This document shows positions 10,169 to 41,984 of a stretch of DNA of 48,525 nucleotides, in pieces; position 1 is the first letter of the stretch; each line of letters opens with the position of its first letter. Location of the stretch: the NCBI GenBank assembly GCA_026396385.1, contig JAPLWV010000012.1, positions 1 through 48,525 on the forward strand. Direction: 5' to 3'. Below the pieces are notes generated by a model that worked only from the letters and a program-made list of their open reading frames with translations, searched no databases and was not told the DNA's origin. This stretch comes from Candidatus Micrarchaeota archaeon (GTDB taxonomy: Archaea > Micrarchaeota > Micrarchaeia > Burarchaeales > Fermentimicrarchaeaceae). The translations under genes were made by a program, and so were the position numbers.

Positions 10169-10240
10169 GGCCGCGGTAGTCTAATGGCATGACGGCGGGC
10201 TGTGGACCCGCAGGAGGGGGTCCGATTCTCCCCCGCGGCC
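10169..10240 (+). tRNA. tRNA-His(GTG) with genomically encoded G-1
   Basis: GCCGCGG/CCGCGGC acceptor stem; GCGGG-CT GTG GA-CCCGC anticodon arm; C73 discriminator; G at -1. Confidence 0.93.
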
Positions 10241-14049: not shown

Positions 14050-14096
14050 ACGAAAACCTCCAGTAATTTAATATTTTGCTGTTTAAATCCTTATTT

Positions 14097-15290
14097 ATGG
14101 AGAGGGACACTTTAATAAAAGTATTTACGCTGCTGCTCGTAGCGGCTTTCATGCTCGAGCTGTTCAGCATGCGCTCGGCGGTTACGAATACCCCATCCCT
14201 GAACAATACACCGCCGAACCAGGAGCCTTCCCTATACGGAACAGGCCAGACATCGGCAACCCTTCTCTCTTACAGGGGGTATCTGAATGTTTTCAAGTCT
14301 GGAAGGGATCTGACGGCTAACTCCTCACTAGGCGAGATTAGGAATATGGATGGGGTTAGCTACCTTAACAGACAGGGCGGTGCGTTAACTGTCATCATCG
14401 ACCAGAGTTCCAACGCACCTCTTATAGCCAGTGAGATAAAACAGAAGTTCCCGGACCTCAACGTAACCGCAGTCGGACAGTTCGAACTGCCACCAACTGT
14501 TGAATTCACAACTTCAGATGGCAGGAGGAATGTCAGTATGAATGCAGTCATAGAACTTGAGATAGAACCTGACATTCTTCCAGGCGACAATGTCACCCTG
14601 TCACTCATAGGGCTTGTGTCTGGGGACAGCCTCGCTGGAACCCCTCTGGCAAAGGTAATACCAACACAGGGGGAGGCCCTTGCGAATGCCACCATAAAAA
14701 ACATAACCTATGATTATGGGGTAGTTGCCATAATTCCCTGGGAGAGCAGAAATTTGAATGCGAGCAGGATAAGGGAGGCCCTCTCAAAGGAGGTTGGGGA
14801 TCTTAGCATGAATTACAGTCCCAGGTCTTTCGTTTTGGTGAATGGCCTTGATTCAGCAAGTGATGAAATCGTGAAGAAGGTTGAGAACCTGAGCTATGTT
14901 ACGGGTGTGTTCAGCACTGAAGTTGATTTAAGAGATGAGATGAATGATTCCGAAAAGCTTGAAAGTGATATAAAAGGAACTCTTGGAAACAACACCACCA
15001 TTGACTACCCCAGCTCTGTGATGGAGGTGACATTCCACTCCGAAAATCTTAGCAAGGATGGGCTGTTCAGGAGTATCGGGTGGACGCCGGTGGTATACAG
15101 GAGGATGTCTATTGAGGTTAGCGGAAAGCTGAACATATCTGGAGTGGAGTATGACGTGCCCAGCAATACTACTTTTGACGAGATGCTTGTTGATTCCTAT
15201 TCTGTTGGGCAGAAAATTGGCGTGTGGCTCAATACGGGAACAATAGGCAGAAGGATTGTGAATTTGAAGATTGATAGAATCGCAGAATAA
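14097..15290 (+). CDS. Membrane-anchored or secreted putative glycoprotein of unknown function
   Basis: N-terminal hydrophobic helix; beta-rich; many N-x-S/T sequons. Confidence 0.75.
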   Translation: MERDTLIKVFTLLLVAAFMLELFSMRSAVTNTPSLNNTPPNQEPSLYGTGQTSATLLSYRGYLNVFKSGRDLTANSSLGEIRNMDGVSYLNRQGGALTVIIDQSSNAPLIASEIKQKFPDLNVTAVGQFELPPTVEFTTSDGRRNVSMNAVIELEIEPDILPGDNVTLSLIGLVSGDSLAGTPLAKVIPTQGEALANATIKNITYDYGVVAIIPWESRNLNASRIREALSKEVGDLSMNYSPRSFVLVNGLDSASDEIVKKVENLSYVTGVFSTEVDLRDEMNDSEKLESDIKGTLGNNTTIDYPSSVMEVTFHSENLSKDGLFRSIGWTPVVYRRMSIEVSGKLNISGVEYDVPSNTTFDEMLVDSYSVGQKIGVWLNTGTIGRRIVNLKIDRIAE

Positions 15291-15333
15291 GACACTTGCA
15301 AGCCTCTCAGGATACTGCCTCTGACGCACTTCC

Positions 15334-15342
15334 TTTTAAATA
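15334..15342 (+). promoter_or_regulatory. Putative TATA box for the box C/D sRNA
   Basis: TTTTAAATA about 25 nt upstream of the predicted sRNA 5' end. Confidence 0.5.
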
Positions 15343-15363
15343 GGGGATGAGCAATATAATAAC

Positions 15364-15424
15364 TGGCAATGACGACACCGTCCCAGGGGGATACAATATG
15401 ACCGACGGAGTAGCTTCGGAGCCA
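15364..15424 (+). ncRNA. Box C/D methylation-guide sRNA with two guides to 23S rRNA domain V
   Basis: TGGC/GCCA terminal stem; C=ATGACGA, 12-nt guide CACCGTCCCAGG, D'=GGGA, C'=ATGACCG, 12-nt guide ACGGAGTAGCTT, D=CGGA. Guides are complementary to conserved 23S segments CUGGGGCGGU and AAGCUACUCCG. Confidence 0.85.
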
Positions 15425-15715
15425 CTATAGCTTCTTTTGGTCGAATGTATTACTTGACTTTTTACTTTGGTACTCGAAGTCGCTGAAGAATCCGTATAAA
15501 ACTATGAATACACCCACTATCATCAGTATCTGGAAGAAAAGCGCGCTGTTCTGGTATTTCGTGGAGTTGATGCACTGGTAGCAGGGGTCCGCCTCATTCA
15601 CAAACTGGGGTGAAGGGAGCGCACTGCATCCGCAGACGAAGTCATACGCCTTGCTTTCGAGCAGGAAGCCAACAAAGGAGAAAAGGAGACCAAATATTAT
15701 AATCTGGTACTTCAT
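15425..15715 (-). CDS. Small two-TM membrane protein with Cys-rich loop (CxC...CxxC)
   Basis: Two hydrophobic helices flanking VCGC...PCYQC. Confidence 0.65.
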   Translation of the reverse strand: MKYQIIIFGLLFSFVGFLLESKAYDFVCGCSALPSPQFVNEADPCYQCINSTKYQNSALFFQILMIVGVFIVLYGFFSDFEYQSKKSSNTFDQKKL

Positions 15716-15839
15716 GTTAAGGTATTTGTTAATGCCTCTTTAATACTTTTTTGGATTAGTCCCTGCGAAATTTCCTAGGAAACACAGGGATGGTAGACAA
15801 GCAGGTTTTTTCATTAAGGATTTTAGTGAATGAAGTGAT

Positions 15840-16121
15840 TCAACGATATGCCACTGAGAAGGAGCTGAACTCTCCCTTGAAATCATCCCAGGAATGCTCA
15901 ATCCTATCGACCCTGGCGGTTGGAGGTCCTTTCCTGCACCAGTCAAGCAGCGCCTCAAGAGCTTCTCTCTCACCTTCTGCAAGTATCTCAACCGAGCCGT
16001 CCCTCCTGTTCCTCACCCACCCCGTTATGCTTAGGCTGAAAGCTTTCTGCTCTGCGCCGGACCTGAAGAAGACTCCCTGGACAATTCCGTAGACTTCAAC
16101 ATGCAGCCTGGCTTTTGCCAT
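15840..16121 (-). CDS. acyP: Acylphosphatase
   Basis: GIVQGVFFR and GWVRNRRDGSVE signatures. Confidence 0.96.
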   Translation of the reverse strand: MAKARLHVEVYGIVQGVFFRSGAEQKAFSLSITGWVRNRRDGSVEILAEGEREALEALLDWCRKGPPTARVDRIEHSWDDFKGEFSSFSVAYR

Positions 16122-27432: not shown

Positions 27433-27519
27433 GCGGGGGTGTCAGAGCCTGGTCTAATGAGCAGGGCTTAGGACCCTGTGCGCTTAGGCGCTTCGTGGGT
27501 TCAAATCCCTCCCCCCGCA
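27433..27519 (+). tRNA. tRNA-Leu(TAG)
   Basis: GCGGGGG/CCCCCGC acceptor; CAGGG-CT TAG GA-CCCTG; long variable arm; TTCAAAT T-loop. Confidence 0.95.
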
Positions 27520-28635: not shown

Positions 28636-28707
28636 GCCCCGGTAGCTCAGTGGTAGAGCGAACGCCTTGTAAGCGTTAGGTCGCGAGTTCAATCCTCGCT
28701 CGGGGCT
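28636..28707 (+). tRNA. tRNA-Thr(TGT)
   Basis: GCCCCGG/TCGGGGC acceptor; AACGC-CT TGT AA-GCGTT; GTTCAATC. Confidence 0.96.
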
Positions 28708-34181: not shown

Positions 34182-34254
34182 GGGGGGATGTGCTAGTCTG
34201 GTATGCTTCGGGGTTTGGGACCCCGCGACCCGAGTTCAAATCTCGGTCCCCCCA
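34182..34254 (+). tRNA. tRNA-Pro(TGG)
   Basis: GGGGGGA/TCCCCCC acceptor; CGGGG-TT TGG GA-CCCCG; CCGAG-TTCAAAT-CTCGG. Confidence 0.94.
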
Positions 34255-41684: not shown

Positions 41685-41984
41685 TCACTTCACGAGCTCT
41701 AGTACGTTTGAGTTTCCGGGGTCATGTATGCTCAATGCAGAAATCGGGAATGGCTTTCCGCATAAGGAGCCTAACTCCAGAGAAGTCTCGCTGGACATAT
41801 AGACAGCCGTTTTGGACAACTTAGAATAATATGTAATATCTTCTTTAAATTTCTTTGGGCAATTGCTTGAGATAATTATCAGTCTTGCCTCTCCGCTTGA
41901 AGCGAGGCGCAGGGCGCTCTTCACTCCGAAATCCACTTTTCCTGTATCCACGGCCATTCTTATTGCTTTATCTATACCCGCCAT
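41685..41984 (-). CDS. rpl30e: 50S ribosomal protein L30e
   Basis: AVDTGKV.FG, ELGSLCGKPF, I.DPGNS. Confidence 0.96.
   Translation of the reverse strand: MAGIDKAIRMAVDTGKVDFGVKSALRLASSGEARLIIISSNCPKKFKEDITYYSKLSKTAVYMSSETSLELGSLCGKPFPISALSIHDPGNSNVLELVK

Follow-up and report, generated by a model that had tools for sequence, protein, structure and literature searches.

SNORD31 and yeast snR67 guide the methylation of the P-loop guanosine (Gm), and the same P-loop nucleotide is modified by the protein-only Gm2251 methyltransferases RlmB (bacterial) and Pet56/MRM1 (mitochondrial), which are stand-alone enzymes that use no guide RNA. In archaea, the equivalent of G2251 is a predicted box C/D target in three of seven species (Dennis et al. 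2015, PMC4644070). The archaeal P-loop sRNAs, as that paper describes them, belong to hyperthermophilic hosts and carry RUGAUGA and CUGA boxes. The K-turns formed by archaeal C and D boxes are strongly U:U at the 3b:3n position, followed by a strongly conserved G:C at 4b:4n (Ashraf et al. 2017, PMC5689011). Where 3b.3n is a Watson-Crick pair, as in the U4 snRNA and Kt-15, K-turns are described as unfolded in Mg2+ alone, yet they are bound by L7Ae-family proteins (McPhee et al. 2014, PMC4382518).

The window analysed here, a contig of 48,525 nt (C48), belongs to an archaeal genome of 1.02 Mb in 54 contigs with 46% G+C. Positions 15364-15424 (+) very probably encode an archaeal box C/D guide RNA of about 61 nt, apparently expressed from its own TATA promoter and predicted to target G2251 and U2438 of the 23S rRNA. 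Compared with the archaeal P-loop sRNAs in the account of Dennis et al. (2015, PMC4644070), the kind of RNA, the machinery, the target nucleotide, the 12-nt guides and the N+5 rule are the same, while the differences from that description lie in the host (Micrarchaeota), the boxes (AUGACGA/CGGA and AUGACCG/GGGA) and a G.U pair kept in the P-loop duplex. The K-turns of the U4 snRNA and Kt-15, as described in PMC4382518, share with the present one a G-C, G-U or C-G pair after the tandem G.A pairs, but they are not part of box C/D guide RNAs; K-turns of that kind need protein to fold. A C-G pair at 3b.3n is thus unusual for a box C/D RNA but biochemically plausible, because K-turns of the U4/Kt-15 type bind L7Ae-family proteins. 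The RNA kind, the mechanism and the main target are already known. New are the lineage, the sequences of the boxes, the view across the family of a 3b.3n that drifts next to a covarying 4b.4n, and the non-Watson-Crick pairs conserved in both guide duplexes. A literature search found no publication on box C/D sRNAs of Micrarchaeota, nor on box sRNAs together with fibrillarin in DPANN archaea.

The locus escapes searches built on consensus boxes, as the initial annotation had anticipated. At the gathering score, Rfam gives no C/D family match at the sRNA; its only matches in the window are four tRNA genes on the + strand (10170-10240, 27433-27519, 28636-28707 and 34182-34254). The consensus-box score of the sRNA is 15/22, below the listing threshold of 17. 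Run in E-value mode, Rfam brings up only SNORD31, snR86 and SNORD49 (E = 0.4-2.7). The best of these, SNORD31 (RF00089), reaches 13.6 bits against a gathering score of 40 (E = 2.3), which is short of family membership. This weak alignment lays the SNORD31 guide ACCGCCCCAG-UCUGA over ACCGUCCCAG-GGGGA of the sRNA and so identifies the two as one and the same antisense element to the P loop, located upstream of D′. The sRNA differs from SNORD31 in its second guide and in having the size and spacing of archaeal RNAs.

Anatomy of the Locus

The element occupies the gap between the stop codons of two open reading frames, 14076-15290 (+) and 15425-15715 (-), neither of which has any Pfam match. On the + strand of the window, the DNA reads TGGC (15364-67), A, ATGACGA (15369-75), CACCGTCCCAGG (15376-87, 12 nt), GGGA (15388-91), TACAAT (15392-97), ATGACCG (15398-404), ACGGAGTAGCTT (15405-16, 12 nt), CGGA (15417-20) and GCCA (15421-24). 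This direct reading bears out the boxes, spacer lengths and coordinates that had been assigned at 15364..15424. The corresponding RNA is UGGC-A-AUGACGA-CACCGUCCCAGG-GGGA-UACAAU-AUGACCG-ACGGAGUAGCUU-CGGA-GCCA, and its features are as follows.

15333..15341 (+): TATA-like promoter element TTTTAAATA, a motif match only, about 25-30 nt 5′ of the first base of the RNA
15364..15424 (+): predicted box C/D sRNA, whole, 61 nt; in relatives the conserved block spans the 5′ stem through the 3′ stem
15364..15367 (+): UGGC, 5′ strand of the terminal stem (C stem of the C/D K-turn); pairs with 15421-15424
15369..15375 (+): C box AUGACGA (consensus RUGAUGA; position 5, which is 3b, is C)
15376..15387 (+): D′ guide CACCGUCCCAGG; 15377-15386 pair with 23S 2257-2248 (P loop), C15383 opposite G2251
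15388..15391 (+): D′ box GGGA (consensus CUGA; GA kept); with C′ it can form G.A, A.G, C-G and C-G
15392..15397 (+): 6-nt loop UACAAU closing the C′/D′ motif (K-loop form)
15398..15404 (+): C′ box AUGACCG
15405..15416 (+): D guide ACGGAGUAGCUU; pairs with 23S 2434-2444, A15412 opposite U2438, A15409 facing C2441 (mismatch)
15417..15420 (+): D box CGGA (consensus CUGA; position 2, which is 3n, is G)
15421..15424 (+): 3′ half of the terminal stem, GCCA, with covariation in the family alignment

The terminal stem has 4 bp, the inner loop 6 nt, and the internal D′ and C′ boxes lie, as in archaeal C/D RNAs generally, between spacers of about 12 nt (exactly 12 nt for both guides). All the elements of a C/D K-turn can be read in UGGC / AAU / G-A ... 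G-A / GCCA, namely a terminal stem, a 3-nt bulge and tandem sheared G.A/A.G pairs. In the C/D motif, the G.A and A.G pairs are followed by C-G at 3b.3n and G-C at 4b.4n, and in the C′/D′ motif by C-G and C-G. Measured against RUGAUGA and CUGA, the C box AUGACGA agrees at 6/7 positions and the D box CGGA at 3/4, and the internal boxes are AUGACCG (C′) and GGGA (D′). The sRNA departs from the box consensus and keeps the K-turn core. Its minimum free energy is no better than that of shuffled sequences (z = -0.15), as expected for an RNA whose guides must stay open.

Conservation in Micrarchaeota

A 141-base query covering the element was compared by BLAST with 60 relatives; the element was recovered across the order and, more weakly, across the class. 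The pattern of the two guide cores was also searched in 185,579 species genomes, which gave 70 loci, 39 with archaeal titles (nearly all Micrarchaeota) and 31 with bacterial titles. C and D boxes and a TATA motif upstream are seen in all 39 archaeal loci; the 31 bacterial ones show none of these. Because about 134 pattern matches are expected by chance (19 fixed bases, 31 gap lengths, 596 Gb, both strands, uniform composition), the bacterial matches are consistent with chance. In the Ca. Fermentimicrarchaeum limneticum record (L087), the copy of the sRNA differs from that of the window at 3 of 61 bases, and on the strength of such records the genome is assigned to Micrarchaeota (DPANN), probably within or close to this genus.

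Removal of duplicates left 37 distinct full-length homologues, which were aligned (A1). Both guides are nearly unchanged across these 37 Micrarchaeota sequences, and the U-G-A of the C box and the G-A of the D box are invariant (37/37); in the single sequence, the tandem GA pairs had already been noted as kept. In the terminal stem, 89.9% of the cells are paired and all four pairs change on both sides across the family. For the whole named structure, 82.0% of the cells are paired against 59.9% in shuffles, none of 500 shuffles being as high, and sliding the partners by 1-3 columns lowers the 82.0% found in register to 17.6-49.2%. A TATA-like motif begins 24-38 nt upstream (mode 29) in 33 of the 37, against 8 of 37 for a downstream control window of the same width. 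The public sequencing runs listed for positions 14600-16100 of the window, 23 in number, are all DNA contigs with word shares of at most 0.26, and no RNA run is among them. Outside the genus, relatives have a hairpin at the position of the C′/D′ loop, often closed by a GNRA-type loop. The D′ spacer of one homologue, L031, is 11 nt, which would move its N+5 position by one base.

Architecture alone is weak evidence for an sRNA gene. When the 1.0-Mb genome was scanned for stem and boxes under relaxed criteria, 32 matches were obtained against 2-9 in five shuffles, so the false-positive rate of such a scan is appreciable. It is conservation, in the form of 37 distinct homologues with covarying stems, that lifts this sRNA above chance. 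Judged by these alignments, 15364-15424 (+) is a real gene, for a predicted box C/D sRNA that is widely conserved in Micrarchaeota. The reading that there is no RNA gene at all, and that the box-like words arose by chance in an intergenic spacer or form part of a 3′ UTR or terminator, is hardly credible: the relaxed box architecture does arise by chance several times per genome, but against it stand the 37 distinct homologues, in which the guides are invariant, the stems covary and TATA motifs lie upstream, and the guide-target covariation described below.

Evolution of the K-Turn Boxes

The initial annotation had called the box changes compensatory, which proves to hold for one of the two pairs concerned. 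At 4b.4n, all 37 sequences have a Watson-Crick pair, of four types (GC 27, AU 6, CG 2, UA 2), which points to clear compensatory evolution. At 3b.3n, the states are U.U in 12 sequences, C.U in 10, C-G in 5, C.C in 3, A-U in 3, G.U in 2 and G-C in 2, so that standard pairs make up 12 of 37; the 3b base is C in 18, U in 12, G in 4 and A in 3. Since sister lineages persist with C.U or C.C, pairing at 3b.3n is not required. It is not clearly selected either, and the C-G of the window seems to be just one of the states through which this position drifts.

The D box CGGA is found only in five distinct sequences, from the genus of the window (g1) and its sister genus (g2); the other sequences have CUGA, CCGA, UCGA, UUGA, AUGA or GUGA. 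C at 3b is spread over several families of the order, while G at 3n is limited to g1 and g2. Going by this distribution rather than by a tree, the C-box change would have come first and the U-to-G change of the D box second. The AUGACC/GGGA combination recurs in other clades, e.g., in L019-L021, L025 and L085.

Predicted Targets on the Native 23S rRNA

In the assembly, the native 23S gene is partial and consists of the 3′ 820 nt, on contig C53. Positions were numbered by alignment to E. coli K-12 rrlH, and the mapping was repeated on the complete 23S of a genome of the same genus. Both guides proved complementary to the organism's own 23S, the D guide with one A.C mismatch. The native 23S has CUGGGGCGGU at 2248-2257, which gives 10 bp with 15377-15386 of the D′ guide, including one G.U (U15381.G2253), and C15383, the fifth base upstream of D′, is opposite G2251. 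The assignment of the D′ guide to the P loop with N+5 on G2251, first made against a consensus, is thus upheld on the native sequence. In the complete 16S and 23S of the same-genus genome, the P loop is the best match of the D′ guide (score 9.5; 5 of 300 shuffled guides as good, p = 0.017).

For the D guide, the native 23S has AAGCUACCCCG at 2434-2444, and A15412, the fifth base upstream of D, is opposite U2438. The register on U2438 had been correctly proposed; the U at 2441 of that consensus and of E. coli is, on the other hand, C in the native sequence, so that A15409 forms an A.C mismatch and the duplex consists of 7 bp, the mismatch and 3 bp. The N+5 rule thus places the D′ guide on G2251 and, with this one mismatch, the D guide on U2438. 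All relatives with a site recovered by the pattern (19 of the 30 rRNA loci examined) have C at 2441, and the guide A is kept throughout. In the same-genus genome, 2434-2445 is the best match of the D guide in 16S and 23S, but taken by itself this match does not reach significance (shuffle p = 0.21). A search for an alternative perfect target of the D guide, with AGCTACTCCG in G000, G002, G005, G006 and G013, returned only the sRNA gene and one unconserved site on G000:C19.

The strongest support for both predicted assignments is provided by guide-target covariation. The 23S genes of G033 and G048 have CUGGGGUGGU (C2254U) and AAGUUACCCCG (C2437U), and the sRNAs of the same two genomes carry the matching guide changes ACCACCCCAG and GGAGUAACU. 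The two genomes belong to different genera of one family and probably reflect a single ancestral event; they are counted as one observation kept in two genera.

Each of the two duplexes retains a single non-Watson-Crick pair, at guide position 7 (15381) in one and 8 (15409) in the other, counted from the box, and both U15381.G2253 and A15409.C2441 are conserved in nearly all relatives. They possibly serve to tune very G+C-rich duplexes.

The rRNA genes show a further peculiarity. On C53 (G000:C53:32593-33215; locus L103:2040-2555, -), the 23S match does not begin until model position 2144, and the sequence ahead of it, up to the end of the contig, is an insertion. This insertion holds an open frame of 171 aa containing ...YLRGFFDAEGEV..., a stretch which we take to be LAGLIDADG-like; NCBIfam gave no family match for the frame. 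An insertion is probably present in the 16S of a same-genus genome too, which measures 2018 nt against a model of 1478 positions.

RNP Proteins and Other sRNAs of the Genome

The genes asked for by the initial annotation are all present in the host genome: fibrillarin (284.7 bits), Nop5, a Nop-domain protein (197.4 bits), and L7Ae, on contig C19:22480-22758 (TIGR03677, 136.1 bits against a cut-off of 134.6). A gene for ribosomal protein L30e lies in the window at 41700-41975 (-) (NF002172, 112.4 bits); it matches the Pfam L7Ae family PF01248, yet is not L7Ae.

Three genome scans (relaxed stem-plus-box, consensus-box and promoter-anchored relaxed), the top matches of which were inspected, gave four convincing sRNAs in total, listed below with strand and with C/D boxes.

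C48:15364-15424 (+): the sRNA of the window, AUGACGA / CGGA; predicted targets G2251 and U2438
G000:C18:15628-15688 (-): A-loop sRNA, AUGAGGA / CCGA (G-C at 3b.3n); D′ with an 11-bp perfect A-loop match, N+5 on U2552, and D with N+5 on U2504 (predicted)
G000:C26:11913-11970 (+): canonical sRNA, UGAUGA/CUGA; D′ guide complementary to the 16S 3′ end (AGAUCACCUCC); conserved in relatives
G000:C53:23873-23932 (-): canonical sRNA, UGAUGA/CUGA; guides to 23S near E. coli 1920 and 1940; conserved in relatives

The promoter-anchored relaxed scan showed no enrichment for further sRNAs (4 matches against 0-3 in shuffles). Candidates of the consensus scan on C38, C49, C9 and C54 were not counted; by eye, they are without an upstream TATA-like motif and resemble ordinary surrounding sequence. 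The repertoire is small, which fits the low C/D sRNA counts given for some other archaea, namely 7 in M. maripaludis and 26 in N. equitans (PMC7994747).

The A-loop sRNA has the layout UGCC-A-AUGAGGA-12 nt-CUGA-UACAAC-AUGAUGA-12 nt-CCGA-GGCG (locus L146/L149). In the 20 rows of its family in which both boxes are visible, the 3b.3n states, read by eye, are U.U 6, G-C 4, C.U 3, C.C 3, G.U 2, C-G 1 and A-U 1. The two canonical families have UGAUGA/CUGA wherever both boxes are visible, in 16 of 18 rows for one family and in 11 of 11 for the other. A lineage-wide relaxation of the K-turn code was rejected on this account, and the variant boxes are a property of the two guides for PTC loops rather than of the whole lineage, since the two other families stay UGAUGA/CUGA.

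A separate observation concerns the last ~14 bases of the A-loop sRNA (ACAGCGTCCGAGGC, with up to 2 mismatches), which recur between unrelated accessory genes. Copies lie at G000:C18:15629, 14163, 10821 and 7714 (-), at C9:48308 and 52965 (-) and at C41:865 (+), and the element is multi-copy in G001-G003. Some copies also carry a downstream palindrome, ATTTTACG-A-CGTAAAAT, and in relatives some copies have a TATA motif of their own in front and differ in the 5′ half. Among the neighbours are transglutaminase-like, NosD-like, radical SAM/SPASM, methyltransferase and RNase II genes. Pfam found no integrase among the 8 ORFs near the repeats on C18. The recurring 3′ end may be an att-like or cassette-boundary element.

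Proposed Mechanism and Alternative Explanations

In the mechanism that we propose, L7Ae would bind the C/D K-turn, composed of the terminal stem UGGC/GCCA, the 3-nt bulge, the sheared G.A and A.G pairs and then C-G and G-C, and would also bind the C′/D′ K-loop (G.A, A.G, C-G, C-G). Nop5 and fibrillarin would then assemble on the sRNA. Pairing of the D′ guide with the 23S P loop (E. coli 2248-2257) would lead to 2′-O-methylation of G2251, while the D guide would pair with 2434-2444, located 5′ of the central PTC ring, and direct methylation of U2438. The unusual boxes would represent one state of a drifting 3b.3n, next to a 4b.4n held Watson-Crick by covariation. Transcription, assembly of the RNP and methylation are all inferred, by analogy with the well-studied archaeal C/D RNP.

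It could be argued that this real C/D sRNA is effectively a single guide, in which D′ alone would methylate and the D guide would be a pairing or chaperone element, or a guide made weak or inactive by its A.C mismatch. To our knowledge, methylation at U2438 has not been reported, which agrees with such a view, as do the D-guide complementarity, no better than in shuffles (p = 0.21), and the mismatch, which is present at guide position 8 in the host and in all relatives with a recovered site. The D guide is, however, as conserved as the D′ guide, it covaries with rRNA position 2437 in G033 and G048, and in the five genomes searched its perfect matches come down to its own gene and one site in a single genome. 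A distance of 187 nt separates the two targets in domain V; such spacing is common for double guides and also counts against a single guide. On balance, a single guide is improbable, and a double guide directed at both G2251 and U2438 is the preferred reading. Another view takes the box changes for adaptive compensatory rewiring and supposes that Micrarchaeota hide a sizeable repertoire of non-CUGA sRNAs, close to what the initial annotation had suggested. The A-loop sRNA speaks for it, with AUGAGGA and CCGA boxes forming G-C at 3b.3n and a family that shows the same range of states; within the P-loop family, moreover, all purines at 3b are paired (7/7), and the D box leaves U only when 3b is C or G. 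These points have to be set against the persistence of C.U (10) and C.C (3) among the 37 sequences, the 12 standard 3b.3n pairs observed where ~9.7 are expected from the marginals under independence, the UGAUGA/CUGA boxes of the two other families in the same genomes (16/18 and 11/11 rows), and the yield of three genome scans, just four convincing sRNAs. Rewiring together with a large hidden repertoire is thus unlikely. What remains of the latter is one further variant-box sRNA, the A-loop guide, in a set of four of which two are canonical. We retain the reading of a drifting 3b.3n beside a covarying 4b.4n in a double guide RNA.

Significance for Micrarchaeota and for Box C/D K-Turns

The four sRNAs make up a first, well-supported set of C/D guide RNAs for Micrarchaeota. 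In a symbiont genome of about 1 Mb, predicted guides are kept for the two universally modified loops that hold the ends of tRNAs, at G2251 and U2552. Finders that rely on consensus boxes, and Rfam, miss such RNAs, and sRNA counts in DPANN archaea may therefore be underestimates, though here modestly so.

The family described here also constitutes a natural mutational series of a box C/D K-turn, with seven 3b.3n states and four 4b.4n states among 37 sequences, that can be compared with published folding rules. A tentative generalisation, which we consider possible but doubtful, is that in the P-loop and A-loop guides 3b.3n and 4b.4n evolve like ordinary helix positions, and that the conserved G.U (guide position 7) and A.C (position 8) have been selected to loosen very G+C-rich PTC duplexes. 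If 3b.3n and 4b.4n do evolve in this helix-like way, RNP assembly would proceed without a need for the U.U/G-C identity of 'stem II', at least where the terminal stem is stable.
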